Part shown: positions 5,138 to 30,207 of the stretch, in pieces
Layout of the letters: every line of letters starts with the position of its first letter
Numbering within the stretch: position 1 is the stretch's first letter
Assembly: GCA_035758935.1 (NCBI GenBank)
Contig: DASTVU010000672.1
Span: forward strand, 1 to 35,112
Reading direction: 5' to 3'
Origin: Pyrinomonadaceae bacterium
Lineage (GTDB): Bacteria; Acidobacteriota; Blastocatellia; Pyrinomonadales; Pyrinomonadaceae
DNA length: 35,112 nucleotides
The notes under the pieces: generated by a model
What the model was told of the DNA's origin: nothing
Seen by the model: only the letters and a program-made list of their open reading frames with translations
Databases searched by the model: none
Translations under genes and position numbers: made by a program

Positions 5138-5154
5138 GCCCCAAAGATAGACCC

Positions 5155-5227
5155 AGCCACAAAAAAGCACAAAAGGCACAAGAAAACAGATAATCACTTT
5201 TTGTGCTTCTTGTGCCTTTTTGTGGCT
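5155..5227. repeat. Palindromic element, GCACAAA type
   Basis: agccacaaaaaagcacaaaaggcacaag ... cttgtgcctttttgtggct. Outer 11 nt are perfectly complementary; inner units are permuted (about 3 mismatches). Confidence 0.85.
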
Positions 5228-5232
5228 GTGAT

Positions 5233-6042
5233 TTATTTCAACAAATTCGAAACTTCGAGCACTTGCTCGGGCCTCGCTCGCACCCAGTAGTTTTCAGTCA
5301 GATTGATCCATCGCACCGTGCCCGTTGAATCGACCAGGAACTCTGCCGGGCGTGCGATGTCATGACCATCCTCACCGGCACCCGCATGGACCAGATCGTA
5401 ACGACGAATCACTTCAACGCTCTGATCGGAGAGTAATGGGAAAGTGTAACCTTGTTGCTGCGCGAGATCGCGTGACGCATCAGGAGCATCAACACTGATC
5501 GCAACCGGACGTATGCCCACTTCGCTCAACTTGTCCAAACTTTTTTCAATACCCCGCAACTCGGAGTTGCACAAAGGTCACCAGTAGCCTCGGTAGAAGA
5601 TCAGCAGCACGCCTCTAGGCGCCTTGCCGTTGATCGGCGTGGTCATTAGTTCGTTGAGTGACACCTGCTTGCCTGTGGTATCAGGCAGAGTAAAGTCTGG
5701 CGCTCGCTGACCGACTTGCGGTGCACCTTTCGACGCCGGCAACATGCGTCCGCCAACGAAGTACGCAAAAACAAATAAACCAATCACGAGGACGCCAAAT
5801 GCAGTTACGAGCACGCTGATGATCTTCGAGCGCGTGGGATGCGGGCGATCCGAAGCAAAGCCCCGTCGCAGTCCCACGAACAGCAACACTCCCGCAAGCA
5901 GGAAGAGCAAGAAGTTGGCCCACGGAAAGTCGCGTGTAAGCGGGAACCAGACGAAGATGAAGAAGTAACTCATGAAGGCCGCGACGGTGAGCAGTAAGCC
6001 CACCCAGAGCGGCCAGTTAATGCGTCGTAATATCGTGTCCAT
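5233..6042 (-). CDS. Membrane-anchored peroxiredoxin-like (AhpC/TSA/redoxin family) protein with in-frame TGA at the first redox Cys; candidate selenoprotein (alternatively a pseudogene)
   Basis: ORFs 5578..6042 and 5233..5574 are in the same frame, separated only by TGA (5578..5580). Read-through gives ..APDFTLPDTTGKQVSL..GVLLIFYRGYW-[TGA]-PLCNSELRG..VAISVD..GYTFPLLSD... The family motif is FYRG.WCP.C, so the TGA replaces the first Cys. The M that starts ORF 5233..5574 is really the TTG Leu codon of PLC. The N-terminus has 4 predicted TM helices. Confidence 0.6.
5551..5577 (-). promoter_or_regulatory. Candidate SECIS-like hairpin immediately 3' of the TGA
   Basis: mRNA: UGA CCUUUGUGCAAC UCCGA GUUGCGGGG. 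It forms GCAAC/GUUGC plus a U-G extension, with C/U-G pairs beyond a bulge. The 5-nt apical loop contains a G about 19 nt from the U of UGA. Confidence 0.4.
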
Positions 6043-6046: not shown

Positions 6047-6427
6047 TTAACGACTAAACGGTCTTAACTTCGTTCTACCATACGCAACGAACGCGCACAG
6101 CAAAGCAATTATCAAATTCGGAAAAGCCGGTCCAAAACCATCGCCCATCGCCACTACAACCGTTGCACCGATCATAATGATCGTTAATCCGATGGCAGCA
6201 AGCACCGTCAGATATGGCTTTATCCGCAAAAGTCCCGGAAGTAGTAATCCGAGTCCACCAAGTATTTCACACACGCCGATGAAATGAATAAACCACCCGG
6301 GAAACAGTATCTGGTTCGGCGATCCCATACTTCGCATTTGCTCGATCGTGTAATAGAACTTGGTGCCGCCCGCAAACAAGAATAGTAACCCCAAAAGTAT
6401 CTGAAGTATCCAAAGTAAGATGTTCAT
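6047..6427 (-). CDS. DoxX family membrane protein
   Basis: 126 aa, four hydrophobic helices. N-terminus MNILLWILQILLGLLFLFAGGTKF is typical of DoxX. Stop lies 4 nt before the start of the peroxiredoxin-like gene (operon). Confidence 0.8.
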   Translation of the reverse strand: MNILLWILQILLGLLFLFAGGTKFYYTIEQMRSMGSPNQILFPGWFIHFIGVCEILGGLGLLLPGLLRIKPYLTVLAAIGLTIIMIGATVVVAMGDGFGPAFPNLIIALLCAFVAYGRTKLRPFSR

Positions 6428-6568: not shown

Positions 6569-6925
6569 TCACTGCTGCGGCAGTCCTTTAATCTCCAACA
6601 CCGGACGAATCTCGATCGTGCCGTACTTCGCACCCGGAATACGTTCAGCAATGCTCATCGCCTCGTCGAGATCACGCGCGTCGATCAGGTAGTAGCCGCC
6701 GAGTGCCTCACGAGTTTCAGCGAATGGACCATCCGTGACCAGCCGTTTGCCAGAGCGCACGCGGACACTCGTGGCGGTCGCCACCGGATGCAAAGGACTA
6801 GCCGCCAGGTATTTGCCCGAAGCGTTGAGATCCTGTGCGAGTTGTGCCGACTCGACATAACAATGGTCACGCTCACTGTCGGTCATGGCGTCTTCCGCGA
6901 GATAAACCAGTAACATGTATTTCAT
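6569..6925 (-). CDS. YciI family protein
   Basis: MKYMLLVY start; DGPFAETREALGGYYLIDARDLDEAMSIA core typical of the YCII domain. Confidence 0.85.
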   Translation of the reverse strand: MKYMLLVYLAEDAMTDSERDHCYVESAQLAQDLNASGKYLAASPLHPVATATSVRVRSGKRLVTDGPFAETREALGGYYLIDARDLDEAMSIAERIPGAKYGTIEIRPVLEIKGLPQQ

Positions 6926-7002
6926 AATTTCGTGCCTCCACTGCTAAATCGAACGGCGAGCTATAGAATCGACACCTCAACCGAATTTTTTTATTATCAA
7001 AC

Positions 7003-8259
7003 GTGCTTCCAAACGCTAACTTTACCGTCGACGCAGTTTACCGATCTGACTGGGGCCGGATTGTTGCAACTCTCATACGTCAGTTTGGCGATTTCGAACT
7101 TGCCGAAGACGCTGCTCAAGACGCGTTCACTGCCGCCGTCGACCAGTGGCCAACCGAAGGTATACCCGAATCACCGCGTGCCTGGATCATCCAGACAGCA
7201 AAGCACAAAGCCATCGATCGCCTGCGACGTCAGATCCGTCTTCAGGAAAAACTCGAAGCCGATCCAGACTTCGCGTCAGAACCAATCGTCGAAGGTCCAA
7301 AGCTCGATTTTGAAGAGATCCCCGACGATCGTTTACGACTGATCTTTACCTGCTGCCACCCAGCACTGTCTCTGGAAGCACAGGTCGCCCTGACGTTGCG
7401 TACTTTAGGCGGTCTTCAGACCGATGAAATCGCGCGTTCGTTCCTCGTTCCCACCGCCACGATGGCCCAGCGACTGGTGCGCGCGAAACGAAAAATCCGC
7501 GACGCAGGAATTCCTTTCAGTGTTCCAGACACGACTGAGATGCCGGCGCGTCTGGACGGTGTGTTGACCGCAATCTATCTCATCTTCACCGAAGGTTATG
7601 CACCGACGAGAGGCGCACCACTCGTGCGAGCCGATCTCTGTGCGGAAGCAATTCGACTCGGCCGTCTTCTCAGAAGACTGCTCGGTCCGAAGCCGCCTTC
7701 TGAAGCGACTGCACTCGTTGCCCTCATGTTGTTACACGACTCGCGACGCGAGGCTCGCCTGGATGAAGATGGCGATCTGGTTACGCTCGAAGAACAGGAT
7801 CGCTCGCTTTGGAACAGGGCTCAAATTGACGAAGCACTCGTTTTAGTTGATGAGGCACTCGCCGGCCAACCTGGTCCATACGCGTTGGAGGCGGCCCTTG
7901 CCGCTGAACACTGTAAAGCCGCTCGAGCTGAAGACACGAACTGGGAAGAAATCGTCAAACTCTACGATCTCCTCGCAGACCTGATGCCTTCTCCGATCGT
8001 GTCGTTAAATCGCGCCGTGGCAGTTGCAATGGCCCGCGGTCCACAAAAGGCACTCGAGTTAATCGACGAGCTCGCCGCATCGGGCGAGCTCGACGAATAC
8101 CATCTGTTACACGCAGCGCGCGCTGACATGCTTCGTCGTCTCGGATCCAATGAAGAAGCCGCTGAGAGTTACAAAACAGCTTTGCGTTTGGTCACCAACG
8201 ACAGCGAGCGCCGTTTCCTCGAGCGCCGCCTCCGCGAAGTCCGATCGTTGCCACAATAA
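7003..8259 (+). CDS. ECF-like RNA polymerase sigma factor with long C-terminal helical extension
   Basis: GTG start. Region 2 (FELAEDAAQDAFTAAVDQW) and region 4 HTH (LTLRTLGGLQTDEIARSFLVPTATMAQRLVRAKRKI), followed by about 230 aa of Ala/Leu-rich helices. This sigma class is commonly adjacent to YciI genes. Confidence 0.85.
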   Translation: MLPNANFTVDAVYRSDWGRIVATLIRQFGDFELAEDAAQDAFTAAVDQWPTEGIPESPRAWIIQTAKHKAIDRLRRQIRLQEKLEADPDFASEPIVEGPKLDFEEIPDDRLRLIFTCCHPALSLEAQVALTLRTLGGLQTDEIARSFLVPTATMAQRLVRAKRKIRDAGIPFSVPDTTEMPARLDGVLTAIYLIFTEGYAPTRGAPLVRADLCAEAIRLGRLLRRLLGPKPPSEATALVALMLLHDSRREARLDEDGDLVTLEEQDRSLWNRAQIDEALVLVDEALAGQPGPYALEAALAAEHCKAARAEDTNWEEIVKLYDLLADLMPSPIVSLNRAVAVAMARGPQKALELIDELAASGELDEYHLLHAARADMLRRLGSNEEAAESYKTALRLVTNDSERRFLERRLREVRSLPQ

Positions 8260-8265
8260 ATTCTT

Positions 8266-8354
8266 GTCACAAAAAGGCACCTAAAGCACAAAATGATTAC
8301 TTCATTTGGCGCTGTTGCTGAATTATTGTTTTGTGCTTTGTGCCTTTTTGTGGC
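8266..8354. repeat. Palindromic element, GCACAAA type
   Basis: gtcacaaaaaggcacctaaagcacaaaa ... ttgttttgtgctttgtgcctttttgtggc. Lies between convergent stops (8259 and 8371). An extra half unit ttctttgtggct runs to 8372. Confidence 0.85.
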
Positions 8355-8370
8355 GACCTCTTCTTTGTGG

Positions 8371-8835
8371 CTAAGCTCCGCCGCCTGCGGCCATCGCGGC
8401 GAGGCGCTTGTCGATCTCTTCCGGTGAAACATCTTCTTTGTGCGTCGCGACGGTCCAAACGTGACCGAACGGATCCGTCAACGTACCGGAACGATCACCG
8501 TAAAACTGGTCCTGCACAGGCTTCATCTCAGTGCCGCCGGCGGCGATAGCCTGCGGATAGATCGTGTCGACGTCGTCAACGTAGATCATCAGGCTTACGG
8601 GTGTGCCACCGAAAGCTTTTACTCCCTTGAACTGCTCGCTCGCATCGGCGAGCATGAACGGTGAATCGCCAATCTTCATTTCGGCGTGGCCAATCTTTCC
8701 TTCGTGTTCCATGCGAAACAGTTCGACGGCACCGAATGCTTTCTTGTAATACTCCATCGCGTCAGCCGCACCATCGATAACCAAATAGGGCGTTAAAGAG
8801 TGGTATCCCTCCGGAATCGGTTTCACATCTGCCAT
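8371..8835 (-). CDS. VOC (glyoxalase/bleomycin-resistance, PhnB-like) family protein
   Basis: ORF 8371..8907 trimmed to ATG 8835 (MADVKPIPEGYHSLTPYLVIDGAADAMEYYKKAFGA), which has an AAGGGGA SD and removes the overlap with the upstream gene. GHAEMKIGDS..MLAD..DPFGHVWTV are typical motifs. Confidence 0.8.
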   Translation of the reverse strand: MADVKPIPEGYHSLTPYLVIDGAADAMEYYKKAFGAVELFRMEHEGKIGHAEMKIGDSPFMLADASEQFKGVKAFGGTPVSLMIYVDDVDTIYPQAIAAGGTEMKPVQDQFYGDRSGTLTDPFGHVWTVATHKEDVSPEEIDKRLAAMAAGGGA

Positions 8836-8851
8836 AACAATTCCCCTTTCG

Positions 8852-9715
8852 TTAGTTGAGAGTCTTACTAAGTCTGGAAATTTTTCTGCCGTTGTTTTTG
8901 ACGACAACGAGCGTCATATCGTCGGTGAGCGGGCGCGGCGCCGCAAAATCCTGCACTGCGCCCAGCACTGAAAACAGCACTGCCTCCGCCGACTCGCCCT
9001 GGGCGCGGCGTAACTCGGTTTGGAGTCGCATGTTGCCAAACTCCTGCTCCGCTTCGTTGAATGACTCAAGGATACCATCAGAGCACGCTAATAGCAGATC
9101 GCCGCGCCGTAAACGGACGGTGCCGCAGTCAAACGATGCTTCCGGCACTGCCCCGAGCACTGGTCCACCGTCCGAGAGTAATTCGAGCTGTCCACCTGAA
9201 CGCAGCAACAACGCGGGCGGATGTCCGGCGCTACAGTAATCGAGTTGCTCCGTAATCGAATTGAGTCGAGCAACAAACAAACTGCTTAACGGCTCGATGC
9301 CTGCGAAACGAGCAATGTCGCGATTGACACCGGCGACAATCGTTTCCGGATCGCTGCTCCTCGCGGTATGTGTGCGAATAAGTCCAACCAGATGCGTGAC
9401 CCACATCCCTGCCGCCAACCCTTTGCCGCCGATATCGCCAAGCGCAAGGATCAGACCTTCACTCGTCTCCTCGGCACTAAAGAAGTCACCCGGCAAATGA
9501 CGAACTGCAAAGATCTCACTCGCTACATCGAAACTGCCGTGTCGCACCAGACTCGGTGCGCATAAACGGCGATGCACCTGTGCCGCTTCGAAGATCGCAG
9601 TGTTCAGCTCAGCGTAATCCTGCTGCAGCTTCTCCAATCGTTGTTCGAGCGCGCTGGAGGGCGACACAACTGTAGACTGGGGAGACGACTGGACTCCGAA
9701 TGCTGGGAGAGTCAT
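8852..9715 (-). CDS. PP2C/SpoIIE-family serine phosphatase
   Basis: GDFFSA..LALGDIGGKGLAAG..CSAGHPPALLLR..LLACSDGILES..TDDMTLVVV motifs. N-terminal coiled-coil segment. Confidence 0.85.
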   Translation of the reverse strand: MTLPAFGVQSSPQSTVVSPSSALEQRLEKLQQDYAELNTAIFEAAQVHRRLCAPSLVRHGSFDVASEIFAVRHLPGDFFSAEETSEGLILALGDIGGKGLAAGMWVTHLVGLIRTHTARSSDPETIVAGVNRDIARFAGIEPLSSLFVARLNSITEQLDYCSAGHPPALLLRSGGQLELLSDGGPVLGAVPEASFDCGTVRLRRGDLLLACSDGILESFNEAEQEFGNMRLQTELRRAQGESAEAVLFSVLGAVQDFAAPRPLTDDMTLVVVKNNGRKISRLSKTLN

Positions 9716-17465: not shown

Positions 17466-19688
17466 GTGCATGGGATAGATTCCAACGGCCACGAGGAAAA
17501 TTCCGTTCTGATCGTCAACGATGAGCCAGACCAGCTCACCCTGATGGGAAGTCTGTTGCGAAAGGCCGGTTATGCGGTTCTTACCGCTGAAGACGGACTT
17601 GAGGGTCTGACTCTCGCCAGACGAGAACGGCCCGATCTGGTTATCAGTGACGTTTCGATGCCGCGAATGAACGGCCTGGCATTCTGCCGCGAGATTCGCG
17701 CCGACCTGGAATTAAAAACTGTCCCGATTCTGCTCGTCACAGCCCTTCAGAAAGACACCGAAAGCGCGGTGGCTGGTCTGCAAGCCGGCGCTGACGACTA
17801 TCTCGAATTCCCTTTTGATTCGGCTCGCCTCGTCGCCAAAGTCTCGCGCCTGCTCGAGCGTTCTCGTCTCGAGGCCAGTTATCGAGACCTCGTCGAGCAG
17901 GCCAGTGACATGATCTTTACGCAGGATCTGGCAGGCAGACTGACGAGCATCAACCTCGCCGCGCAGAAGTTTCTGGGTCGCAAACCTGAAGAGATCATCG
18001 GCAACTCTTTCTTCTCCGTCTTTGGAGTGATTCCAGAAAGTAATGGTTTTGGCGGCAGTCTCGGACGTTCACAGGAAGCGGACGAGTTCCGCCACCAGTT
18101 TGTCGCACGCTCGTCCGGAGGCGACGATCGTTGGCTCGATCTCATTGTTTCGCCTATCAAAGACAAGCTGAACGAAACAATCGGTTTTCGTGGACTTGCG
18201 CGCGACGTCACCGAGCGCAAACGTTTCGAAGAAGCACTGCGCGACTCCGAGGAACGCTACCGGCTTCTCTTTGAATCGACGCCGCAACCAATCTGGGTCT
18301 ACAACGAAGACACACTCTCGTTCCTCGCCGTCAACGAAGCTGCAACTCGGACCTATGGCTACTCCCGCGACGAGTTTCTCTCCATGACGATCGACGACAT
18401 TCGTCCTTCTGAAGATATTCCCACCCTCATGATCAAAAACGATCCGAACGACCTCGTCATCTCGAGTCCATGGCGCCATTGCACCCGAACGGGAGCGACG
18501 CTCTATGTCGAGATGAGCTCGCACCCGGTCGTCTTTGACGGGAAGAACAGCAGGCTGGTAATCGTCAACGATGTCACTGAACGCAAACTTCTCGACGAGA
18601 AGCAGCAGCGCCTGCATGCCTCGTTGCAGCAGTCGGCAATGGAATGGCGGCAGACGTTCAACGCCATCGATTTTCCAGTGTTAATTGTGGATCTGTGGGG
18701 AACTATCAAGCGTTCGAATCAGGCCGCCGAGCAGATCGTGGGCGTCAGTGCGGAACAGATTCTGGGGAAAACTGTGAGCGAGCTTGGTGAAAACGAGCCC
18801 TGGAAAAAGGCTGTCGCGTTGATCGAAAACATACGCCAAAACCCGGCTCCTGCGGCTGAAGAAGTTAAATGCGCCATCACCGGAAAGACGTGGACCATCA
18901 CTCTTTATCACGTCAACGAATTCGGCTCCGCCGGCGAACGAGCAATCCTGATCGCACAGGACATAACAAAACGCGCCGAGCTCGAAGCGTCACTGCGACA
19001 AAGCGAGATGATGTCGCTACTCGGATCCCTCGTCGCCGGCGTTGCACACGAAGTCAGGAATCCTCTCTTCGGGATCTCATCGATACTCGATGCGTTTGAA
19101 ACGAGATTCAGTGACCGGACGGAGTATTTGCGCTATACAAATGTACTGCGCGACGAGATCGGGCGTCTCACCATTTTGATGGAAGAGTTGTTAGAGTATG
19201 GCAAGCCGTTTCGAGGCGAACTGTACCTGGTCTCAATGGAAGAGATGGTTGCACGGTCGGTTCGGGCCTGCATGCCCGCAGCGGAAGTGGCCCACGTAAA
19301 TCTGGTAAGCAAAGTGGAAGACTCTTTACCAAAGATCCGGATCGATCGCCGCAGGCTTTCAAAAGTTTTCGTAAACCTGATCGAGAACGCGATTCAGCAT
19401 TCACCGCAGAAGAGCACGGTCACCATCGAAGCGCACAGCATCAACGATGGAAATCACGAGTGGGTCGAGTGTGCAATCAGGGATAGTGGAGCCGGAATTC
19501 TGCCCGAAGATATGCCAAAGATTTTCGAGCCATTCTTTTCGAAACGACGCGGCGGCACCGGACTTGGGTTAGCGATTGCCCAACGAATCATGCAGGAACA
19601 TGGCGCAAAACTCATTGCCGGCAATAATCCCGAAGGTGGGGCCTGTATGATAGCGAGATTCCCAATACCAGTTGAGGGAGACGCTTAA
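17466..19688 (+). CDS. Hybrid sensor kinase: N-terminal receiver, about three PAS domains, HisKA and HATPase
   Basis: GTG start. Receiver (VLIVNDEPD..LVISDVSMP..). PAS-like blocks (SDMIFTQDLAGRLT, QPIWVYNEDTLSFLAVN, DFPVLIVDLWGTI). H-box VAGVAHEVRNPL, N box LIENAIQHS, G boxes RDSGAGI and GGTGLGLAI. No TM segment. Confidence 0.9.
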   Translation: MHGIDSNGHEENSVLIVNDEPDQLTLMGSLLRKAGYAVLTAEDGLEGLTLARRERPDLVISDVSMPRMNGLAFCREIRADLELKTVPILLVTALQKDTESAVAGLQAGADDYLEFPFDSARLVAKVSRLLERSRLEASYRDLVEQASDMIFTQDLAGRLTSINLAAQKFLGRKPEEIIGNSFFSVFGVIPESNGFGGSLGRSQEADEFRHQFVARSSGGDDRWLDLIVSPIKDKLNETIGFRGLARDVTERKRFEEALRDSEERYRLLFESTPQPIWVYNEDTLSFLAVNEAATRTYGYSRDEFLSMTIDDIRPSEDIPTLMIKNDPNDLVISSPWRHCTRTGATLYVEMSSHPVVFDGKNSRLVIVNDVTERKLLDEKQQRLHASLQQSAMEWRQTFNAIDFPVLIVDLWGTIKRSNQAAEQIVGVSAEQILGKTVSELGENEPWKKAVALIENIRQNPAPAAEEVKCAITGKTWTITLYHVNEFGSAGERAILIAQDITKRAELEASLRQSEMMSLLGSLVAGVAHEVRNPLFGISSILDAFETRFSDRTEYLRYTNVLRDEIGRLTILMEELLEYGKPFRGELYLVSMEEMVARSVRACMPAAEVAHVNLVSKVEDSLPKIRIDRRRLSKVFVNLIENAIQHSPQKSTVTIEAHSINDGNHEWVECAIRDSGAGILPEDMPKIFEPFFSKRRGGTGLGLAIAQRIMQEHGAKLIAGNNPEGGACMIARFPIPVEGDA

Positions 19689-21040
19689 TGGCCAGGAATA
19701 AGGTACTGGTTGTTGATGATGAATCCGGAGTGAGATTTGGTATCCGTGACTTCCTCGAGCAGCACGGATACGAAATCGAAGAAGCGGACAGCTGCCAGGA
19801 CGCGCAGAATCTCTTTCGCAATTCGAGACCCGACATCGTCATCGCCGACTACATGATGCCGGACGGCACCGCCCTCGATCTCCTGCCAAAATTGAGAGAG
19901 ATCGACGCCGGAATTCCTTTACTGGTCCTAACGGCTCATGGCTCAATCGATCTTGCCGTCAGAGCGATAAAAGAGGGCGCAGAACAATTTCTAACCAAGC
20001 CACTCGAGTTGCCGACGCTTCTCGTAATCCTGCAAAGACTGCTGCAAAAACAGCGCAACTACCACAAGCAACTGGCCAGCAAATCGCGCCAGGTTCGCCA
20101 GGCCATCGATCCATTCATCGGCACAAGTGCCGCCATTCGCGCGCTCGCTGATCAGGCGAAAAAAATTCTTTCGACTGAGAGTCCGGTCCTGATTCTGGGT
20201 GAAACCGGAACTGGAAAAGGCGTGCTGGCCCGCTGGCTACACGAGAATAGCCCGCGCGCCGACGAAGCTTTCGTCGATCTCAATTGTGCTGGTCTAACCC
20301 GGGAACTTCTCGAGACGGAGCTCTTCGGTCATGAAAAGGGAGCCTTCACGAGTGCGACTGCCTCCAAGCAAGGTCTCTTTGAAGTGGCCCATCGCGGCAC
20401 CATCTTTCTCGACGAAGTTGGTGACGTGGACCTTCAGATTCAACCCAAGCTGTTGAAAGTTCTGGAGGAGAAACGCTTCAGACGATTGGGCGACGTGAGA
20501 GACCGTCAGGTGGATGTACGACTTATTGCAGCCACTCATCAGGATCTCGGACAGCTCGTGCGGGAGAAGCGATTTCGCGACGACCTCTATTTTCGTATCA
20601 GCACGATTCCTCTGTCGTTTCCATCTCTGCGAGATCGAATCGAAGATATACCAACGTTGGCCCAATACCTGCTCGATAAAGTTGCCGCCGACTTGGGTCG
20701 TGGCGAATTAAGATTGGACCAGGGCTGTATGCAGGCGCTTCAGGCTTACTCATGGCCCGGCAATATTCGCGAACTGCGTAACGTTATAGAACGAGCTGTG
20801 TTGCTCAGTGACCAAAAACATATCACGCTTAACGATCTTCACTTCGATGGTCATGCACAGGTTGGCGCTCCTTTTCTCGACTCACGTCTCACGCTTCTGG
20901 AACTCGAAAAGCAACACATCGAGCGGGTGCTGCAGGAGGAGAAGGGCCGCGTTGAGAAGGCAGCTAAACGTCTCGGCATTCCGAGAAGCTCGCTTTATCA
21001 GAAGATAAAGAAGCATCAGATCCTCCCGTCCAAAGTCTAG
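19688..21040 (+). CDS. Sigma-54-dependent NtrC-family response regulator (REC, AAA+, Fis-type HTH)
   Basis: The ATG overlaps the kinase stop (TAATG). Walker A GETGTGKG, GAFTSA loop (GAFTGA variant), RFRDDLYFR, WPGNIRELRN. C-terminal HTH AAKRLGIPRSSLYQKIKK. Confidence 0.92.
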   Translation: MARNKVLVVDDESGVRFGIRDFLEQHGYEIEEADSCQDAQNLFRNSRPDIVIADYMMPDGTALDLLPKLREIDAGIPLLVLTAHGSIDLAVRAIKEGAEQFLTKPLELPTLLVILQRLLQKQRNYHKQLASKSRQVRQAIDPFIGTSAAIRALADQAKKILSTESPVLILGETGTGKGVLARWLHENSPRADEAFVDLNCAGLTRELLETELFGHEKGAFTSATASKQGLFEVAHRGTIFLDEVGDVDLQIQPKLLKVLEEKRFRRLGDVRDRQVDVRLIAATHQDLGQLVREKRFRDDLYFRISTIPLSFPSLRDRIEDIPTLAQYLLDKVAADLGRGELRLDQGCMQALQAYSWPGNIRELRNVIERAVLLSDQKHITLNDLHFDGHAQVGAPFLDSRLTLLELEKQHIERVLQEEKGRVEKAAKRLGIPRSSLYQKIKKHQILPSKV

Positions 21041-21062
21041 ACTACACGTCTGAGTTCTAGAC
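21035..21062 (+). promoter_or_regulatory. Candidate enhancer (UAS): two TCTAGAC sites 20 bp apart
   Basis: GTCTAGAC (21035..21042, a perfect palindrome overlapping the activator stop codon) and TTCTAGAC (21055..21062). About 75-100 bp upstream of the -24/-12 candidate. Confidence 0.35.
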
Positions 21063-21135
21063 ATTCCTGTTTGGGCCAACTCACACACCTCAGAAAATTC
21101 CGAACTTTTGCTCTATTAGCACTTTCTGATAGTTA

Positions 21136-21151
21136 CGGCGCAGATTTTGCT
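21136..21151 (+). promoter_or_regulatory. Candidate sigma-54 (-24/-12) promoter
   Basis: CGGCGCAGATTTTGCT against consensus TGGCACG-N4-TTGCW. GG and GC have correct spacing and TTGCT is intact; mismatches at 3 less critical positions. 175 nt upstream of PEP-CTERM gene 1. Confidence 0.45.
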
Positions 21152-21325
21152 AAGGAAAGTGACAAGTGCCAGACATACGTATGTTCTCGGGTAGTTCTCC
21201 GAGCCATTTTGGCTGACCTCATCAGAGCCGCAGTTGCCCTGCGTCGCTTTGTTGATGTCAGCCCTCCCACAGATTCTGCGTTTATAGGCTTCCGTTCGGA
21301 AGTCGGTACAAGGAGGCGGTTAAAA

Positions 21326-21982
21326 ATGTCCCGATTTGGTTCTATGAAAAATTTCGTGCTTGCGTTGGCGGTGTTCGCCGTTATCGGCGTCGTAGCCGGC
21401 ACGGCAAAAGCCGATATAGTTGTTGTTACAGGAGTCAATAACCAGGGCACGGACAATGTCCTGCTCAACCCTGCTACCAACGTGCTCACCGTAACCGGTA
21501 CGGTCGGCCAAAATAATCTACTAGTCAATTTTACTTCCACCAGCGGCAGCGGGCTGCTCAATGCTAATCCGTCGGGCCAGGCTACGGTAAGCGGAGGTAC
21601 TGGTAACGATCCGTTAAACCAACTGACCTTTAGCCTAGCCAACAACGGCACGTTCACTCGCGCAGTCTTCAACATTAATGCTGCAGTAAACGGTACGGTC
21701 ACGCTGACAGTGACAGGAATAAACATCACCGGCGGCACGTTTGTCGACACGTTTCAGGTGGACGCTAATGGTCAAAATTTCTTTACCGTAACGGCCATAA
21801 ACGGTCAGTTAATTCAGACCATTAGTCTCAATGGCGTAGCGATGGAAGACGTTAGACAGGTTCGACTTGGTGGTGGCGAGATTCAGCAAACTATTCCAGA
21901 ACCGGCCAGCATGTTCTTGCTGGGAACTGGTCTTCTCGGAGCAGCAGCTGGTTTCCGAAAGCGGTTTGGCAAAAAGAGTTAG
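21326..21982 (+). CDS. PEP-CTERM sorting domain protein 1
   Basis: ORF 21071..21982 trimmed to ATG 21326 (AGGAGG 9 nt upstream). Signal peptide MSRFGSMKNFVLALAVFAVIGVVAGTAKA. T/N/G/V-rich core. C-terminal IPEPASMFLLGTGLLGAAAGFRKRF. Confidence 0.9.
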   Translation: MSRFGSMKNFVLALAVFAVIGVVAGTAKADIVVVTGVNNQGTDNVLLNPATNVLTVTGTVGQNNLLVNFTSTSGSGLLNANPSGQATVSGGTGNDPLNQLTFSLANNGTFTRAVFNINAAVNGTVTLTVTGINITGGTFVDTFQVDANGQNFFTVTAINGQLIQTISLNGVAMEDVRQVRLGGGEIQQTIPEPASMFLLGTGLLGAAAGFRKRFGKKS

Positions 21983-22037
21983 GCTGAAACTCGGTTGAGT
22001 CTCCGCCTGGCAATCAAGCGAGTGTCCTGTGTGTAAC

Positions 22038-22058
22038 TCCCTCGCCCCGACCGAGGGA
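22038..22058 (+). terminator. Possible terminator hairpin after PEP-CTERM gene 1
   Basis: tccctcg ccccgac cgaggga followed by atttctct. 7-bp stem with a weak U tract. Confidence 0.4.
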
Positions 22059-22186
22059 ATTTCTCTGGCCGGTATGTTGAGCGTGCATTGCCCCGCTTCG
22101 CTCGCCAATCCCAGGCCTTCTTACTTTGTTTTGCTTCCAGGGCTGCGGCCTGGGAGCAACGTAAAATTGTCCTCGAGGAGACTTAA

Positions 22187-22912
22187 ATGCCCAGGTTTTC
22201 GAACCTCAAGAATGCTGTGCTGGCCCTGGCGGTCTTCGGCATCATCGCGCTTGCCAACGGAAGCGCAAAAGCCGACCCCATCTCTGTTTGTACCGGACCC
22301 GGGTGCAGCACAACCAACGTGACAGGTTCAATTGTCGCAGGCAATGGAACCGTTACCATAACCCTTAACAACAACCTGACCAACAGCCAGGTGGTCAGTG
22401 TTATTCAAAATATCAGTGGTGTCTATTTCCAGGTGAGTGGTTACAACGGCGGCGCCGTTTCGCTCTCGGGAAGCAACAGCACGCAATCCACCAATATCGA
22501 CAATGCTGGAAACGCAGTTCTCGCTGGTGCAGTGAACCCAACAGGTTGGGCCGCTGGACATAGTGGTTCGACCATCACGGCTTGTGTGGTATGCGCCTTT
22601 GGCGTAGGTCCAACGGCAGGTCCAGAGCAGACGATTATTGGCGGTACCGGAAGCGGTGCGTACGCGAATGCGAACGGCAGTATTGCGGGTAATAATCCGC
22701 ACAACCCGTTTCTTGCTGGAACCGTGACATTCACTGTCGTAGTTCCGGGAGTGACCGTCAACTCGACATTTTCAAATGTTGTGATCCAATTCGGCACAAC
22801 TGCGACTCCTCCGCAAACTCAGCAAGTTCCCGAACCTGCCAGCATGTTTCTGCTGGGCACGGGTCTTCTCGGAGCTGCGGCTGGTTTCCGCCGGCGTTTT
22901 CTTAAGAAATAG
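22187..22912 (+). CDS. PEP-CTERM sorting domain protein 2
   Basis: GAGGAG SD. Signal peptide MPRFSNLKNAVLALAVFGIIALANGSAKA, paralogous to gene 1. C-terminal VPEPASMFLLGTGLLGAAAGFRRRF. Confidence 0.9.
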   Translation: MPRFSNLKNAVLALAVFGIIALANGSAKADPISVCTGPGCSTTNVTGSIVAGNGTVTITLNNNLTNSQVVSVIQNISGVYFQVSGYNGGAVSLSGSNSTQSTNIDNAGNAVLAGAVNPTGWAAGHSGSTITACVVCAFGVGPTAGPEQTIIGGTGSGAYANANGSIAGNNPHNPFLAGTVTFTVVVPGVTVNSTFSNVVIQFGTTATPPQTQQVPEPASMFLLGTGLLGAAAGFRRRFLKK

Positions 22913-22932
22913 CTGAATCCTTTCGGGTTCAG
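22913..22932 (+). terminator. Possible terminator hairpin directly after PEP-CTERM gene 2
   Basis: ctgaatcc tttc gggttcag. 8-bp stem with one G-U pair, followed by ttatg. Confidence 0.4.
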
Positions 22933-22947
22933 TTATGCGGATGAAAT

Positions 22948-22988
22948 GTGTTTCCACATCTGCTTTGCCACCGCAGATGTGGAAACAC
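22948..22988. repeat. Perfect 16-bp inverted repeat (CCACATCTGC type)
   Basis: gtgtttccacatctgc tttgccacc gcagatgtggaaacac. The ccaca-tctg core resembles the CACAGAT family. Confidence 0.8.
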
Positions 22989-24778: not shown

Positions 24779-24885
24779 GCCACAAAAAGGCACAAAAAGC
24801 ACATAAAGGTTTTTCCGAGATTTGCTGAGGGACTGGTCTTCTCTGCTGTTTAAATATTTTGTGTTTTTTGGTGCCTTTTTGTGGC
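24779..24885. repeat. Palindromic element, GCACAAA type (56-nt loop)
   Basis: gccacaaaaaggcacaaaaagcaca (24779..24803) against tgtgttttttggtgcctttttgtggc (24860..24885). Lies between convergent stops; its last base is the first base of the dnaE2 stop codon. Confidence 0.85.
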
Positions 24886-27800
24886 TAATGAAAGTCGTGG
24901 GAAGGTGCGGCGGCTACCGCGAATGAGAGTGGCTGCACATGGCTGGCTTTTACCGAAATAACATTATCCTGATTTTGCAGATCTCCTTCGATCAAGAGAA
25001 ACGGGTGGCCTACCAGTTCAAACCGGTACTTCTCGAACAGTTGCGGAGTGACGATGATGTTGCTCACACCTGTCTCGTCCTCGAGACTCAGGAACATGAA
25101 TCCCTTCGCGGTACCCGGTCGCTGACGAACGATGACCCATCCAGCTACTTTCACAAAAGTACCATTGCGCAACTTCCGGATGTCGATTGCCCGCAGCGCC
25201 TTGAGCTTTTTCAACTCTCCACGATGATAAGCAACCGGATGTTTTCCGATCGTCAACCCTGTCCCGCGGAAATCAGCGTCCACTCGTTCAGTTAACGTCA
25301 TCTGGTGCAGCGGTGAATTGTCATCTTTTTCGAGTAACTCTTCGTATAGTTCGCCGGCCGCGCGCGTCACCCGCTCAACCTGCCACAGCGCATCGCGACG
25401 TGTAGACGTTTGAATAAAATTCAACGCGCCAACAGCAGCCAGTTTTCGCAACTCATCTCTACGCAACCACGGCACGCGATTGTGCAAATCGTCGATACCA
25501 ACGAACGCTCCAGACGCCCGCTCGTGAACAATTGCCTCGCCCGCTTGCTGGCTCAAACCTCGGACGTATCTCAACCCGAGACGGACTGCGAGTGTGGAGT
25601 CTACCTGCTTCTCGATCGTGCAGAGCCATTCAGAGCAGGTAATGTCGATCGGCAGAACCTTCAACCCGTGACGTTGCGCATCTTTAATGATGGTGAATGG
25701 CTGATAAAACCCCATCGGTTGGTTGTTGAGAATCGCGGCTGTGAATGCTGCCAGGTAGTTACATTTAAGATAGGCGCTGGCATAAGCGATCAAAGCAAAA
25801 CTGGCCGCATGCGACTCCGGAAAACCGTAAAGCGCAAACGAGCTGATCGCGAGGACGATCTCTTCCTGCGTCTTTCCCGTGATCCCATTTTTCGTCAGTC
25901 CCTGCCGCAGTTTCACTTCAATCATTTTCATGCGCGCTTCCGAACGTTTGAAACCAAACGCGCGGCGTAATTCTTCGGCCTCGCCTCCGGTAAAGCCGGC
26001 GCAGACCATGGCCATCCGCAGGAGTTGTTCCTGAAACAACGGTATTCCAAGGGTGCGTTTTAAGATGGGCTCCAGCGCAGGATGAGCATAAGTCGCCGGT
26101 TCCCTGCCCTGCCGGCGTTTGAGATAAGGATGGACCATGTTGCCGACGATTGGGCCCGGCCGAATAATTGCCACCTGGACCACGATGTCGTAGAAGTTTG
26201 TTGGTCGCAGTCGTGGCAGACACGACATCTGCGCACGGCTTTCAACCTGAAACATTCCGATCGTGTCGGCCTTTTGCAGCGCTTCATAAACTGCCGGGTC
26301 GTGTTGTGGCAGATGGGCCAGCTCAACTTCTTCGTCGTACGACTCGCGAATCAACTTGATCGAATCTTCCAGCACCGCCATCATTCCCAGTCCCAGCAAG
26401 TCGACCTTGATCAATCCCAGGTCCGCACAATCTTCTTTGTCCCATTGGACCACAACGCGACCGGGCATCGCGGCGGGCTCGAGCGGCACGACGGAATCGA
26501 GCGCTCCCTGGCAAATCACCATGCCGCCTGAATGCTGGCCCAGGTGTCGCGGTAGATCCTGTACCAGTTGATAAAGCTGGAAGAATTTTTTGATTCGCGG
26601 CTGGCGTATATCCAGACCTGCATCACGGAACTGCCGCTCGCTGGAATCGTTTGGATCTTTCCATTCCCAGGTATGGACGAGGGCCGACAGACGCGAAAGC
26701 GTGTCTTCGTCAAAGTCGAGCGCTTTTCCGACTTCGCGCGCCGCTGAACGTCCTCGATAAGTGATGACATTGGCGGTCATCGCAGCTCCCAGTTTTCCGT
26801 AGCGCTCGTAAACGTATTGAATTGCCTGCTCGCGTTTATCTCCGCTCGGCAAATCTAGATCGATGTCGGGCCATTCGCCTCTCTCTTCCGAAAGAAACCG
26901 TTCAAACAAAAGATCCATGCCGATCGGATCAACGGCAGTGATTCCCAGCGAATAACAGACAGCGCTATTTGCCGCCGAACCGCGTCCCTGAACCAGAATT
27001 CCATGGCGATTGCAGAACTTAACGATGTCCCAAACGATCAGGAAATAACCTTCCAGCTTGAGTTTTTCGATCAAGGCCAGCTCACGTTCGAGTTGAGGCC
27101 GCGCCTTTTCGTAAGTAGGCATGCCGTGCGTGCCGGTGTAGCGTGCGCGCGCGCCTTCTTCCGTGCGCTTGCGTAGAAAGGAGGTCATCGTTTCGCCACG
27201 TGGCACAGGGTATTTGGGAAACTCATAACCGAGATCTTCGAGCGTAAACTTCAGTCGCGAGGAGAGTTCAACAGTATTGGCAATCGCTTCAGGAAGATCC
27301 GCGAAGAGTTGCTCCATCATCGCGCCTGACTTCAGATGTCGTTCTGAGTTTTGTGCGAGCAGACGTCCGGCAGTTTCCAGTCGCACGTGATTGCGAATAC
27401 AGGTGAAGACGTCAGACACTTCCCGGCGTGACCGTGTCGCATAACAAACGCCGTTAGTGGCGAGTAACGGTAGATGATTGCGCCTGGCAAGCTCGATTAC
27501 CAGATGATTGCGGGCTTCCTCCTCGCGATCCAGATGCCGCTGCAGTTCCGCATACACATTTTTTTTGCCAAACAGTTCAACGAGCCAATCGATCTCGCTC
27601 TGTGCTTTAGTAGTGTTTTCCGCATCTCTGGGATTGATGGCAGTCGCAATTGGTCCATCAAAGCTTCCAGTCAAACAGATCAAACCTTTGGCGTGTGCGG
27701 CCAACTCGCCAGACGTGACTGTGCATTCACCGGGCTTTGCGTGTTTCGGCACACGCAATTTCATCAACGTGATGAGTCGACAGAGATTCTGATAACCGGT

Positions 27801-28064
27801 GCGGTTACGGACGAGGACGGGAATGGAGCAGATGCCTCGTGCGCCTGGTTTTTGAACGCTTATCTCGGCCCCGATATGCGCCTGGATGCCGTTCCTTTTT
27901 GCAGAAAGGTGAAATCGCGGTGCGCCATAAACTCCATCGCGGTCCAGCAAAGCCATCGCCGGCATCTCTAACTCGAGACCGGCAGCAATCAACTCTTCAG
28001 GCACCGAGGCGCCCTCGAGAAAACTAAAAGCCGACCGCGCATGTAGCTCAACGTAGGTGGACAT
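24885..28064 (-). CDS. dnaE2: Error-prone DNA polymerase DnaE2 (Pol III alpha paralogue)
   Basis: ORF 24885..28160 trimmed to ATG 28064 (MSTYVELHARSAFSFLEGASVPEEL, the canonical PHP-domain opening); the 32 extra codons translate the intergenic palindrome. About 1059 aa. Follows imuA and imuB. Confidence 0.95.
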   Translation of the reverse strand: MSTYVELHARSAFSFLEGASVPEELIAAGLELEMPAMALLDRDGVYGAPRFHLSAKRNGIQAHIGAEISVQKPGARGICSIPVLVRNRTGYQNLCRLITLMKLRVPKHAKPGECTVTSGELAAHAKGLICLTGSFDGPIATAINPRDAENTTKAQSEIDWLVELFGKKNVYAELQRHLDREEEARNHLVIELARRNHLPLLATNGVCYATRSRREVSDVFTCIRNHVRLETAGRLLAQNSERHLKSGAMMEQLFADLPEAIANTVELSSRLKFTLEDLGYEFPKYPVPRGETMTSFLRKRTEEGARARYTGTHGMPTYEKARPQLERELALIEKLKLEGYFLIVWDIVKFCNRHGILVQGRGSAANSAVCYSLGITAVDPIGMDLLFERFLSEERGEWPDIDLDLPSGDKREQAIQYVYERYGKLGAAMTANVITYRGRSAAREVGKALDFDEDTLSRLSALVHTWEWKDPNDSSERQFRDAGLDIRQPRIKKFFQLYQLVQDLPRHLGQHSGGMVICQGALDSVVPLEPAAMPGRVVVQWDKEDCADLGLIKVDLLGLGMMAVLEDSIKLIRESYDEEVELAHLPQHDPAVYEALQKADTIGMFQVESRAQMSCLPRLRPTNFYDIVVQVAIIRPGPIVGNMVHPYLKRRQGREPATYAHPALEPILKRTLGIPLFQEQLLRMAMVCAGFTGGEAEELRRAFGFKRSEARMKMIEVKLRQGLTKNGITGKTQEEIVLAISSFALYGFPESHAASFALIAYASAYLKCNYLAAFTAAILNNQPMGFYQPFTIIKDAQRHGLKVLPIDITCSEWLCTIEKQVDSTLAVRLGLRYVRGLSQQAGEAIVHERASGAFVGIDDLHNRVPWLRRDELRKLAAVGALNFIQTSTRRDALWQVERVTRAAGELYEELLEKDDNSPLHQMTLTERVDADFRGTGLTIGKHPVAYHRGELKKLKALRAIDIRKLRNGTFVKVAGWVIVRQRPGTAKGFMFLSLEDETGVSNIIVTPQLFEKYRFELVGHPFLLIEGDLQNQDNVISVKASHVQPLSFAVAAAPSHDFH

Positions 28065-28071
28065 TTGTACT

Positions 28072-28160
28072 TTGAGCTTGGTGCTTTGTTCTTTGTACTT
28101 TGTGTTTTGTACTTGGGGCATCACTAATACAAAGAACAAAGTACAAAGCACCAAGCTCAA
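28072..28160. repeat. Palindromic element, GTACAAA type, filling the imuB-dnaE2 spacer
   Basis: ttgagcttggtgctttgt (28072..28089) is the exact complement of acaaagcaccaagctcaa (28143..28160). Inner tttgttc/tttgtac units are permuted. The right arm overlaps the imuB stop (28157..28159); the left arm ends 8 nt before the dnaE2 ATG. Confidence 0.85.
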
Positions 28161-29455
28161 TCATAGTTTCCCTCGACAAACCAGTGCTCGGTATTCAACT
28201 CGCGATAGATGCGATAGAGAGTTCGGTGGCCCTGGCGCTCGAGCGTTACGTCCCATTCGTCTCGGGACCAACTATCGTCGCGCCACCAATCACCGGTTGT
28301 TCTCCATGGACCAGCGAGGGCGACGACTTTCCCGTAGACACTGCGTTGCTTGCCCCAGGCGCTGATCTGTGTGGGCCAACCCTGATCGGCTTCAACGATT
28401 GCCTTCAATGGCGGACGATAGCGGCGAAAGCCAAGGCATTGCTGATTGCCAATTGCCGATTGCCGCCTGGCTTTTGTCTGCAACGTGAAACGTTTCATGC
28501 TGAACGCATCCGGCCGGTGTGTATCGAGCAACACGGGTGAACCGACATTTTGCTCGCCCACGAGTTTTGCGAGTCTCGCGAGGGTCAGTTCCAGCTTGTC
28601 GGGCGCCGGCGCAAGCGGCACAAACAGTCCGTTCTGCAACACACGCGGTTTCACCGGTTCACAGGCAATTGCAACTGACGTGACGGCTGCCGCCGGTGGG
28701 TGCATTTCAGTGTCGAGCAACAACAACTTCAGAAACACTTTGTGATCGCGCATCGGGTGAGGCAAAGACAATTTGCGTTCGTGGACGGTCTGATTTTCCA
28801 GTTGCAGAGTCACGCATAGTTCATTCGTCGCGAGGGCATAAGCATTCAGCGCGGCGCAGAGTTGATGCAACAGTCGCGCAAAAATAAATGAGAGCGGCTC
28901 GAGTTCACTAAGGGCGTGATCGAGCTCGATCGAATTTGCAAAAACAGGTGGGGGTTGTTTGACCTGCAAATGTCGCTCGGTTTTGCCGGCAGCGAGTTGC
29001 TGAAGTTTTATTCCCTCTTGTCCCAGGCGTTCAGAAACGCCCGTAACCGGGAGTGCGGCAAAGTCAGCAAAGGTGCGAATGCCCCAGAGCCGCAGTGTTT
29101 CCAGAATCTGATCGGCGATTTTTTTCTCGACCTTAATCAGCGAGTAGTCGAGGTGCTCGATAGGAAACTCTCCGAGGCAGGTCAACTCCTCGCCCGGATA
29201 GACAAAGGTTATTCCTTTCAGGTGAGTGGCGGCATGGATTGCGGCATCCGGATTTGCAGCCAGGGCCACGCTGACCGGAGTTTCCGCGCGCTGAACGACT
29301 TCACTGGCGAGTTGGTAAGGAGAGCCAAATAACAACTCGCATCCTTCTACATCGATTACAACCGTCCCCTTCCCAATCTCTTCCACGATGGGTGAAAAGC
29401 CGTAAGCGAATTCCGCTAAAGAAACATCAACCGGAGAATGGATACAGGCAAACAT
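28157..29455 (-). CDS. imuB: ImuB (catalytically inactive Y-family polymerase-like mutasome subunit)
   Basis: MFACIHSP..VVIDVEGCELLFG opening. Y-family-like N-terminal half. Positioned between imuA and dnaE2. Confidence 0.9.
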   Translation of the reverse strand: MFACIHSPVDVSLAEFAYGFSPIVEEIGKGTVVIDVEGCELLFGSPYQLASEVVQRAETPVSVALAANPDAAIHAATHLKGITFVYPGEELTCLGEFPIEHLDYSLIKVEKKIADQILETLRLWGIRTFADFAALPVTGVSERLGQEGIKLQQLAAGKTERHLQVKQPPPVFANSIELDHALSELEPLSFIFARLLHQLCAALNAYALATNELCVTLQLENQTVHERKLSLPHPMRDHKVFLKLLLLDTEMHPPAAAVTSVAIACEPVKPRVLQNGLFVPLAPAPDKLELTLARLAKLVGEQNVGSPVLLDTHRPDAFSMKRFTLQTKARRQSAIGNQQCLGFRRYRPPLKAIVEADQGWPTQISAWGKQRSVYGKVVALAGPWRTTGDWWRDDSWSRDEWDVTLERQGHRTLYRIYRELNTEHWFVEGNYD

Positions 29456-29494: not shown

Positions 29495-30172
29495 TCACAT
29501 CTGTGCCGCTATAAATTGACGGTCATTGCGCGAGGGATAAAGCGGACGCTGACGATTCACCCTGATCGCGTTGTGACGCAGAAGCTTTCCGCGCGACCAC
29601 TCTGCAACTCCGTTCAACTCAAGCGTTACCGCGGCGCACGAGCGAGTGCACGCTTCCTCAGAAATTACCGCCAGCACTGTTGGTCTATCCTCGACGGTGC
29701 GACGAAAGCGATACCACCACGAAGAGATAATCCGGCGCGCTTCTTTTCCTGCCACATCCCCGAGATCGAGGATCACCAACCCGAAGCCACCTGCATGTAA
29801 CAACAGATCCGCGGCCTTAAAAGCGTGTTCGAGATTGCCGGCACAACGAACCCACAGCAGTCGATCGAAATCCACGCCGCTTGCCGTTGCGGCCGTCGGC
29901 GCAAACACATCATTCGTATCAACGAGAGCACATGTCTCTTCATGCCTGGTTGCATAAGAAAGCATTGAATACATCAAGCTGGTACGTCCTGATGATGCCG
30001 GTCCAAAAATCTCACTAATGGCCCCACGCGGCAGACCGCCGGTTAAGTCGTCAATCTCATCGACACCGGTGGAAAGTGTTTCGACAACAGCCTTTTCATG
30101 AACTCTAAAGGCATCGCCAAAACGACTGGCCATATTGGCTTCGAGCTCTGTTTTTGAGAGTGCAGCTTTCAT
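29495..30172 (-). CDS. imuA: ImuA (RecA/SulA-like mutasome subunit)
   Basis: LSTGVDEIDDLTGGLPRGAISEIFGPASSGRTSL (RecA-like P-loop remnant)..LLWVRC..GGFGLVILD. First gene of the imuA-imuB-dnaE2 cassette. Alternative start at M14 (30133). Confidence 0.8.
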   Translation of the reverse strand: MKAALSKTELEANMASRFGDAFRVHEKAVVETLSTGVDEIDDLTGGLPRGAISEIFGPASSGRTSLMYSMLSYATRHEETCALVDTNDVFAPTAATASGVDFDRLLWVRCAGNLEHAFKAADLLLHAGGFGLVILDLGDVAGKEARRIISSWWYRFRRTVEDRPTVLAVISEEACTRSCAAVTLELNGVAEWSRGKLLRHNAIRVNRQRPLYPSRNDRQFIAAQM

Positions 30173-30207
30173 GATTATCGTGAGATTCTCTCAGTGCAAT
30201 CGCAACA

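Follow-up and report, generated by a model that had tools for sequence, protein, structure and literature searches.

Among the selenoproteins predicted in prokaryotes, the ‘Prx-like thiol:disulfide oxidoreductases’ (Prx, peroxiredoxin; PF00578, with a UxxC or UxxU motif in which U is selenocysteine, Sec) have formed a recognised family from the earliest selenoproteome surveys of prokaryotes onwards (PMC1088965; PMC9312934; PMC13188914). This family was described as a distant Prx homologue in which a thioredoxin-like UxxC replaces TxxU (PMC1088965), and PMC13188914 places it among those ‘predicted with high confidence’. Acidobacteria, for their part, are recorded as Sec users (PMC1794560; PMC12013277). 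Here, we analysed a 35,112-nucleotide stretch from a Pyrinomonadaceae bacterium (contig DASTVU010000672.1 of assembly GCA_035758935.1; hereafter the window, i.e. the whole stretch of DNA at its full length) and focused on a minus-strand frame, 6042..5233, that is interrupted by a UGA codon. This frame very probably is a single gene for a 269-residue selenoprotein whose UGA is read as Sec, a reading to which we give a probability of about 90 %. It is mainly supported by the presence of the same TGA in 160/160 related loci, by the Cys found at this column in homologues, by selection on the downstream half and by an invariant hairpin lying at the distance of a selenocysteine insertion sequence (SECIS). 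An earlier note, made from the letters of the window, had proposed a UGA-encoded Sec at the first CxxC position of a membrane-anchored redoxin, and the comparative evidence supports this proposal.

The Prx-like family was represented in our comparison by WP_010940744.1 of Geobacter sulfurreducens, whose sequence was taken from the supplement of PMC12013277. Both proteins share PF00578 and the FYRGxWUPxC motif, and their redoxin domains are 30 % identical over 176 columns (BLASTP, E = 1e-23), with U aligned on U (FYRGYW[U]PLC over FYRGAW[U]PYC). They differ in other respects: the first ~50 residues of the Geobacter protein are helical and soluble, it carries an insertion of ~14 residues and the alignment starts at its residue 51, whereas the window protein has a 98-residue three-helix membrane domain with an invariant TRDFPW loop, so that the reference architecture is not matched. 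It also differs by its origin, i.e. Acidobacteriota and aerated soil and rhizosphere metagenomes. The naming rule used in the field, which relies on the domain and the Sec motif, places the window protein in the Prx-like thiol:disulfide oxidoreductase family; its architecture, predicted location, lineage and SECIS set it apart as a distinct, so far unannotated membrane-anchored variant. The opinion that it was ‘not a standard annotated selenoprotein type’ thus holds for the membrane-anchored architecture and not for the PF00578/UxxC type, which was already known (PMC1088965; PMC13188914). No NCBIfam model was matched at its cut-off, the scores being 32.6 vs 270 bits for PrxU (NF040737), 33.5 vs 120 bits for the SelL-related model (NF040769) and 15.8 vs 300 bits for WAxxUGC (NF041054).

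The gene and its UGA codon are located as follows.

5233..6042, minus strand: read-through coding sequence of the predicted selenoprotein, 269 codons plus TAA, with ATG at 6042 and the Sec codon at 155

5578..5580, minus strand: in-frame UGA, predicted to be read as selenocysteine (U155) from the TGA of the related loci and the Cys of the Cys-type homologues

The TGA at 5580..5578 (tca on the plus strand) is the sole interruption of the frame. It closes an upstream open reading frame (ORF) of 154 residues (6042..5578, minus strand) that ends with ...LLIFYRGYW and, together with a CCT codon, separates it from a second ORF (5574..5233) lying in the same frame. Read-through gives a product of 269 residues (...FYRGYW-U-PLCNSELRG...), with 114 codons after the TGA and termination at TAA 5235..5233. 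The ‘M’ listed for the second ORF corresponds to a TTG codon, i.e. Leu157 of U-P-L-C. The frame and its translation therefore confirm what had been described at the outset, namely two same-frame ORFs parted by a TGA, a ...FYRGYW-U-PLCNSE junction and a second ORF whose M is really a TTG Leu codon. When Cys was put for the stop, the AhpC-TSA Pfam domain (PF00578, residues 110-245, 4.7e-29, 101 bits vs a cut-off of 26) spanned the TGA junction, and PF08534 was matched as well (1.5e-16).

In order to assess the conservation of this codon, two sets of relatives were considered: 80 soil and rhizosphere metagenome loci (71-91 % identity) and 80 species-representative genomes (53-89 % identity). The latter included Pyrinomonadaceae, other Blastocatellia, Chloracidobacterium, Terriglobia, Thermoanaerobaculia, Ca. 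Sulfotelmatobacter and one metagenome-assembled genome (MAG) labelled delta proteobacterium. The patterns used for scanning loci were not biased towards TGA; IFYRGYWC, for instance, could match Cys forms only. TGA was found at codon 155 in both sets without exception (80/80 metagenome and 80/80 species-representative loci), none of the 160 loci having TGC, TGT or TGG at this codon or a second stop, and 106-119 codons were open 3' of the TGA in all of them. The earlier note had pointed to the codon borne by orthologues and to a possible frame decay downstream of the stop as decisive; TGC or TGT was encountered in 0/160 loci and no decay was seen in any. The ratio of nonsynonymous to synonymous substitutions (dN/dS; Nei-Gojobori method, NG86, 600 random pairs) was 0.12 for codons 5-154 vs 0.10 for codons 156-265, with a median dS of ~1.3, indicating that both halves are under the same purifying selection; the open downstream frame noted earlier is a general feature of these loci. 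As no TGC, TGT or TGG occurred despite this dS, the TGA codon itself is under selection.

Homologues carrying Cys were then sought in protein databases, the counts given below referring to the 120 matches listed. Cys occupies the TGA column in 19 of these matches, within a WCPxC or GCRAC motif of which the first Cys is the one aligned; the expectation that the TGA column would be the first Cys of CxxC is thereby verified. At the DNA level, the seven Cys-form genes retrieved (L163-L169) have TGC or TGT at this codon. One of them, L164 (Cys form P0005, TGC), shares the gene order of the window, a few extra genes being inserted (His kinase, response regulator, SpoIIE, glyoxalase, divergent sigma factor/DUF6596, YCII, DoxX and redoxin), and is therefore a Cys orthologue.

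The same search revealed how the TGA form is annotated. Among the matches listed, 84 clusters of 151-154 residues, 77-96 % identical and including several Pyrinomonadaceae, end exactly at ...YRGYW; full-length ‘peroxiredoxins’ were also retrieved. NCBI MAG entries of the TGA form are truncated ‘hypothetical proteins’, and 12 of the 120 matches, all IMG/JGI ‘peroxiredoxin’ entries, display Trp at the Sec position (...GYWWPxC...; P0001, P0002, P0003, P0007-P0010, P0012, P0014, P0025, P0088 and P0090). The DNA of P0008 (L170) reads TGG TGA CCG, and its translation under table 11 differs from the query; with the DNA of this one entry checked, the Trp entries are evidently gene-caller artefacts from short contigs called with TGA as Trp. 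A search for the exact sequence of the 154-residue product of the window gave no record. Mis-calling of the gene had been foreseen, and the databases indeed hold either truncated proteins of 151-154 residues or proteins with Trp at the site.

A further line of evidence comes from the RNA directly downstream of the UGA, where a conserved hairpin is located.

5551..5567, minus strand: SECIS-like hairpin A-CUCCG-AGUUG-CGGGG-U, core 5566..5562 / 5556..5552, loop 5561..5557

Its core starts 11 nt 3' of the UGA and has the consensus CUCCG-AGUUN-CGGRG, with a 5-bp stem, which is also the consensus structure returned by RNAalifold. Considering 81 distinct genes, zero synonymous variation was observed in 4 of 139 conserved degenerate codons, i.e. 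codons 159, 160, 161 and 163 (permutation p = 3e-5). These codons, N159 (AAC), S160 (UCC), E161 (GAG) and R163 (CGG), lie 10-24 nt after the UGA; by contrast, the codons of R151 include all six Arg codons. Among 146 distinct sequences, numbered with the T of the TGG preceding TGA as position 1, the invariant block CUCCGAGUU-N-CGG-R-G corresponds to positions C18-U26, C28-G30 and G32. The 5-bp core folds in 146/146 of them, at -5.8 to -7.1 kcal/mol (mean -6.4), and the sole variable position of the stem is a G or A opposite U19 (G.U or A-U), codon 164 accordingly encoding Gly or Ser (AGY). In 91/146 sequences, an additional outer pair, A17-U33, extends the stem. When the SECIS motif was searched across the loci, it was found once per locus, always inside the redoxin gene.

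The bacterial SECIS (bSECIS) model quoted in PMC13188914 comprises an apical loop of 3-9 nt, an upper stem of 4-16 bp, a G in the first two loop positions, a UGA-to-loop spacing of 16-37 nt and a minimum free energy (MFE) of at most -7.5 kcal/mol. The window hairpin has a 5-nt loop whose second and third residues are G and U, a stem of 5 bp (6 bp with the A-U pair) and a spacing of 16 nt, and all four of these features lie within the limits of the model. Like the SECIS of the Escherichia coli fdhF type and bSECIS elements, it is a small hairpin internal to the coding sequence with G then U in the apical loop; unlike the fdhF type, its loop is AGUUN and it has neither a bulged U nor a lower stem including the UGA, and its stability over all forms (-5.8 to -7.5 kcal/mol) is at or below the strength of the bSECIS threshold. 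The minimal fdhF element consists of 17 nt located 11 nt after the UGA, a geometry which we take to match that of the window hairpin.

Another hairpin, GCAAC-UCCGA-GUUGC, had initially been drawn directly after the TGA. It can indeed be drawn, and a conserved hairpin overlapping it does exist, but it is not itself the conserved one: about a third of the sequences disrupt it, and it was rejected in favour of CUCCG-AGUUN-CGGRG. Its pair 15-27 is C.A, C.U, U.C or U.U in 37/146 sequences, pair 16-26 is C.U in 13 and pair 17-25 is U.U in 2, and its mean energy is -3.9 vs -6.4 kcal/mol. It also departs from the bSECIS model on two counts, the loop G being at position 4 and the spacing being 12 nt. 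Its compatibility with many sequences is explained only by the invariance of the region.

Several observations weigh against the decoding of this UGA as Sec. The window hairpin alone reaches -6.6 kcal/mol and thus narrowly misses the bSECIS value of -7.5 kcal/mol, which is attained by two Cys-form genes with an A31 variant hairpin (L166 and L168). No compensatory covariation was detected in the hairpin, because it is invariant, and the structure accordingly rests on thermodynamics, invariance and position. The 69 nt following the TGA, folded as a whole, gave an MFE of -12.6 kcal/mol, no better than shuffled sequences (z = +0.72), so that this check, which the earlier note had put forward, proved uninformative. 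No Rfam family was matched at either gathering or E-value thresholds. The hairpin sequence is kept exactly in 3/7 Cys-form genes (L163, L166 and L168), and its conservation could in part be Sec-independent; these three genes may harbour a ‘fossil’ SECIS left by a recent Sec-to-Cys conversion, whereas the other 4/7 genes of this control deviate at positions that are invariant in the Sec forms, a difference that counts in favour of Sec. Finally, neither selA, selB, selD nor tRNA-Sec was found in the 35-kb window (ARAGORN; Pfam on 32 ORFs), and none was found with E. coli SelA, SelB and SelD (tblastn) and ARAGORN in 161 sequences totalling 1.59 Mb, which are gene flanks only and are uninformative on the genomes.

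A probable second selenoprotein gene, as judged from its sequence, was detected in one of the related loci (L153, MAG MFD09222.bin.2.46) and indirectly supports the reading as Sec. This deiodinase-like gene (L153:7985-8473, minus strand) lies 1.5 kb from the TGA-redoxin of that contig and has an in-frame TGA at FGSYT-U-PPF, which is the Sec position of an Occallatibacter riparius selenoprotein. A strong hairpin, GUGCCCA-GGC-UGGGCAC (7 bp, GGC loop), is found 10 nt after this UGA, and ~130 open codons follow downstream. A de novo screen of all loci for further TGA/Cys pairs yielded low-complexity shadow frames only.

The alternative that survives best, although we regard it as improbable, is that the UGA is decoded otherwise than as Sec, i.e. 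as Cys through a SelC*-type tRNA(ReC) and a SelB-like factor, or as Ser or another residue through an allo-tRNA acting as opal suppressor. Allo-tRNAs that are possible nonsense suppressors have been reported from Acidobacteria, and SelC* tRNA-Cys reads UGA in other phyla (PMC5389517); tRNA(ReC) is likewise treated as an alternative decoder (PMC13582414). SelC* has, however, been reported from Firmicutes, Thermodesulfobacteria, Nitrospirae and Proteobacteria, Acidobacteria being absent from this list (PMC5389517). Moreover, UGA = Cys would make TGA and TGY synonymous, and a mixture of both would be expected at the dS observed, whereas TGA is uniform throughout the 160 loci. That TGA and TGY remain unmixed in close relatives despite near-saturated synonymous sites indicates that the encoded residue is not equivalent to Cys, which favours Sec and disfavours a tRNA(ReC)-type Cys decoding. 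As for Ser or Trp at position 155, either would destroy the CxxC-type centre kept by the homologues, and a position-specific invariant hairpin typifies SelB-dependent decoding as opposed to general suppression.

Two further explanations are far less probable, and we give them about equally little credit. The first is a pseudogene, or a sequencing or assembly error, in which the TGA would be a true stop in a decaying gene. Gene callers do give a truncated product of 152-154 residues, but the recurrence of the same TGA in 160 independent assemblies without frame decay, along with the downstream dN/dS, already refutes it. The second is a pair of products, i.e. a 154-residue membrane protein ending at the UGA and a separately initiated C-terminal fragment of 113 residues, as the TTG-initiated ORF placed directly after the TGA by the mechanical ORF list would suggest. 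This TTG is codon 157 of U-P-x-C; it is start-capable in 18/161 sequences, the codon being mostly Ser, and no conserved start-capable codon was found in the 20 codons 3' of the TGA in the 161 sequences. In addition, both the Pfam domain and the predicted Prx fold extend across the junction, and half a thioredoxin fold deprived of its first redox residue would be an implausible enzyme. Given the purifying selection downstream and the lack of a conserved start, a pseudogene, an assembly error and two separate polypeptides are all excluded. Least probable of all, and already refuted, is a reassigned code with TGA = Trp or Gly, as implied by the IMG calls with W at the column in 12 of the 120 database proteins listed: the DNA of one such entry, P0008, has TGA, TGG replaces TGA in 0/160 loci, and TGA is the ordinary terminator of 5/22 Pfam-supported genes of the window, so that the genetic code is standard.

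Taking the 269-residue Sec-containing product as the preferred reading, we then characterised its two domains and its redox motif.

5749..6042, minus strand: N-terminal membrane domain with three predicted transmembrane helices (~11-33, 40-58, 74-98) and the T36-R37-D-F-P40-W41 loop, from hydropathy, AlphaFold2 and loop charges

5308..5715, minus strand: AhpC/TSA (peroxiredoxin-fold) redoxin domain, residues 110-245, from Pfam, PDB sequence matches and Foldseek

5569..5580, minus strand: predicted redox motif U155-P-L-C158, from the alignment to 2cx3 and 2ywn, conservation and the structural model

Hydropathy displays three peaks (residues 13-31, 40-58 and 74-92), and in the AlphaFold2 model computed for P0004, a Cys homologue (pLDDT 91, pTM 0.86), helices occupy residues 8-26, 39-61 and 68-97, with an additional short one at 32-36; three transmembrane helices are thus predicted instead of the four claimed previously. 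The mean Lys + Arg charge over 160 sequences is +1.9 for the N-terminus and +5.2 for the loop 59-73, the loop 34-41 being neutral. Following the positive-inside rule, the N-terminus and the loop 59-73 would be inside, and the redoxin domain is predicted to face the periplasm. Conservation is at least 98 % for T36, R37, P40 and W41 of the outer loop and for ARPAEF of the redoxin domain, as it is for W154, U155, P156 and C158.

Sequence matches of the C-terminal domain in the PDB were BCP/PrxQ, AhpE and ResA, and Foldseek gave TM-scores (target) of 0.87-0.89 to Bcp4 and AhpE. In the P0004 model, the redox motif is located where a helix begins after a beta-strand. PrxQ/BCP and AhpE (PDB 2cx3, 3hjp and 1xvw) are the best matches in both sequence and fold, and C158 aligns with the peroxidatic Cys of PrxQ/BCP, U155 falling on the Thr/Ser of PxxxT/SxxC (2cx3, 2ywn). 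The window protein differs from these soluble enzymes by the Pro and the Thr/Ser of PxxxT/SxxC, replaced by Arg151 and Sec155, so that it lacks the Pro + Thr/Ser combination typical of Prx. Owing to these two replacements, the centre appears to be a thioredoxin-like UxxC and not peroxidatic. The invariant R231 is one residue off the aligned catalytic Arg of BCP. The protein also resembles ResA/TlpA and MauE/MauD in associating a membrane anchor with an extracytoplasmic CxxC redoxin: ResA was its best NCBIfam match, below threshold, and MauD matched weakly. As the DoxX_2 protein encoded upstream also matches MauE, the module resembles a pair composed of a membrane protein and a redoxin. ResA/TlpA and MauE/MauD are distinguished by a single-pass anchor and by Cys only, and the DoxX adjacency is limited to the clade of the window.

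On this basis, the following mechanism can be proposed. The UGA at codon 155 would be recoded as Sec, the CUCCG-AGUUN-CGGRG hairpin presumably binding SelB loaded with Sec-tRNA(Sec), and the ribosome would insert Sec and then translate the 114 further codons. The three N-terminal transmembrane helices would serve as a membrane anchor for a peroxiredoxin-fold domain predicted to be periplasmic. In the U-P-x-C centre, Sec would act as the nucleophile, cycling between selenolate/thiol and selenenylsulfide, and the protein may function as an envelope thiol:disulfide (or hydroperoxide/sulfenate) oxidoreductase. In the clade of the window, the redoxin gene is the last of a YCII-DoxX-redoxin string facing an extracytoplasmic function (ECF) sigma factor gene, an arrangement which suggests stress-induced expression, possibly with DoxX as a membrane partner. 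The SelB/Sec decoding, topology, substrate, partner and regulation proposed here are those we infer from the data above.

The neighbourhood of the gene comprises the following features.

6047..6427, minus strand: gene for a DoxX_2 / MauE-like membrane protein (DoxX_2 1e-20, MauE 1.3e-7)

6569..6925, minus strand: YCII-domain gene, first of the YCII-DoxX-redoxin string (YCII 2.8e-22; same strand upstream in 75 loci)

7003..8259, plus strand: divergent gene for an ECF-type sigma factor with a C-terminal DUF6596 (Sigma70_r2, r4_2 and DUF6596; divergent upstream in 56 loci)

5154..5228, no strand assigned: 31-nt imperfect inverted repeat (arms 5154-5184 and 5198-5228, 87 % complementary)

The stop of the DoxX_2 gene lies 4 nt before the ATG of the redoxin gene, and both genes are probably co-transcribed and translationally coupled. 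DoxX adjoins the redoxin in 55/61 close relatives vs 10/75 species-level genomes, other clades having other upstream genes. It is thus a clade-specific neighbour and not a defining partner: the linkage to DoxX reported earlier stands for the window and its close relatives, and DoxX as an obligate, family-wide partner was rejected given its rarity in the wider genomes. The upstream YCII gene and the sigma factor arrangement are also present in the locus of the Cys orthologue L164, and the ECF sigma factor would be a candidate regulator of the string. In both the window (6569-8907) and L164 (5323-11167), YCII, DoxX, glyoxalase/VOC, SnoaL and DUF1428 genes cluster round the divergent sigma factor/DUF6596 gene. 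On the other side, the inverted repeat, made of GCACAA(A/G)A-like units, is located between the redoxin stop and a DUF5990 gene; it went unreported in a simple terminator scan and is a possible transcript-end hairpin. The DUF5990 gene probably starts at ATG 5137 and not at GTG 5197, because its Pfam match begins at residue 25 of the listed ORF.

Two other regions of the window may be mentioned. The region 24885-31766 resembles an SOS-type mutagenesis cassette with the order of imuA-imuB-dnaE2: the minus strand carries a RecA-like ORF of 225 residues (30172..29495), an ORF of 432 residues devoid of Pfam match (29455..28157) and a DNA polymerase III alpha-like protein of 1091 residues (28160..24885), and the plus strand carries a uracil-DNA glycosylase family gene (30135-30869) followed by a LexA gene (30900-31766). 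The region 17466-23692 encodes a hybrid PAS histidine kinase and a sigma-54-dependent response regulator, then three small PEP-CTERM-motif proteins, and resembles a PEP-CTERM/exosortase regulatory module.

For annotation, the present analysis implies that a gene which is widespread in Acidobacteriota and appears in public data as a truncated ‘hypothetical protein’ or as a ‘peroxiredoxin’ with Trp lacks a correct call in hundreds of Acidobacteriota genomes; the family can be searched for with the DNA signature TGA-N11-CTCCGAGTTNCGGRG. The 17-nt element, invariant amid near-saturated synonymous sites, offers a clear-cut natural case of a minimal bacterial SECIS. A broader view, which we consider rather unlikely, would see here a polytopic extracytoplasmic selenoprotein with Sec essentially fixed across several Acidobacteriota classes and an unusually minimal SECIS invariant over the phylum. 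Its membrane domain, with the TRDFPW loop, would then be a functional electron-transfer partner and more than an anchor, possibly connected with quinone or DoxX in the manner of DsbB or VKOR; a dominant soil phylum would also be selenium-dependent for the maintenance of envelope redox. In a stranger variant, a non-canonical tRNA resembling the allo-tRNAs of Acidobacteria would decode the UGA. With the UGA read as Sec, many soil Acidobacteriota are indicated as Sec decoders that carry a selenol centre, probably at the outer side of the cytoplasmic membrane, and this would bear on the selenium demand of soil microbiomes.

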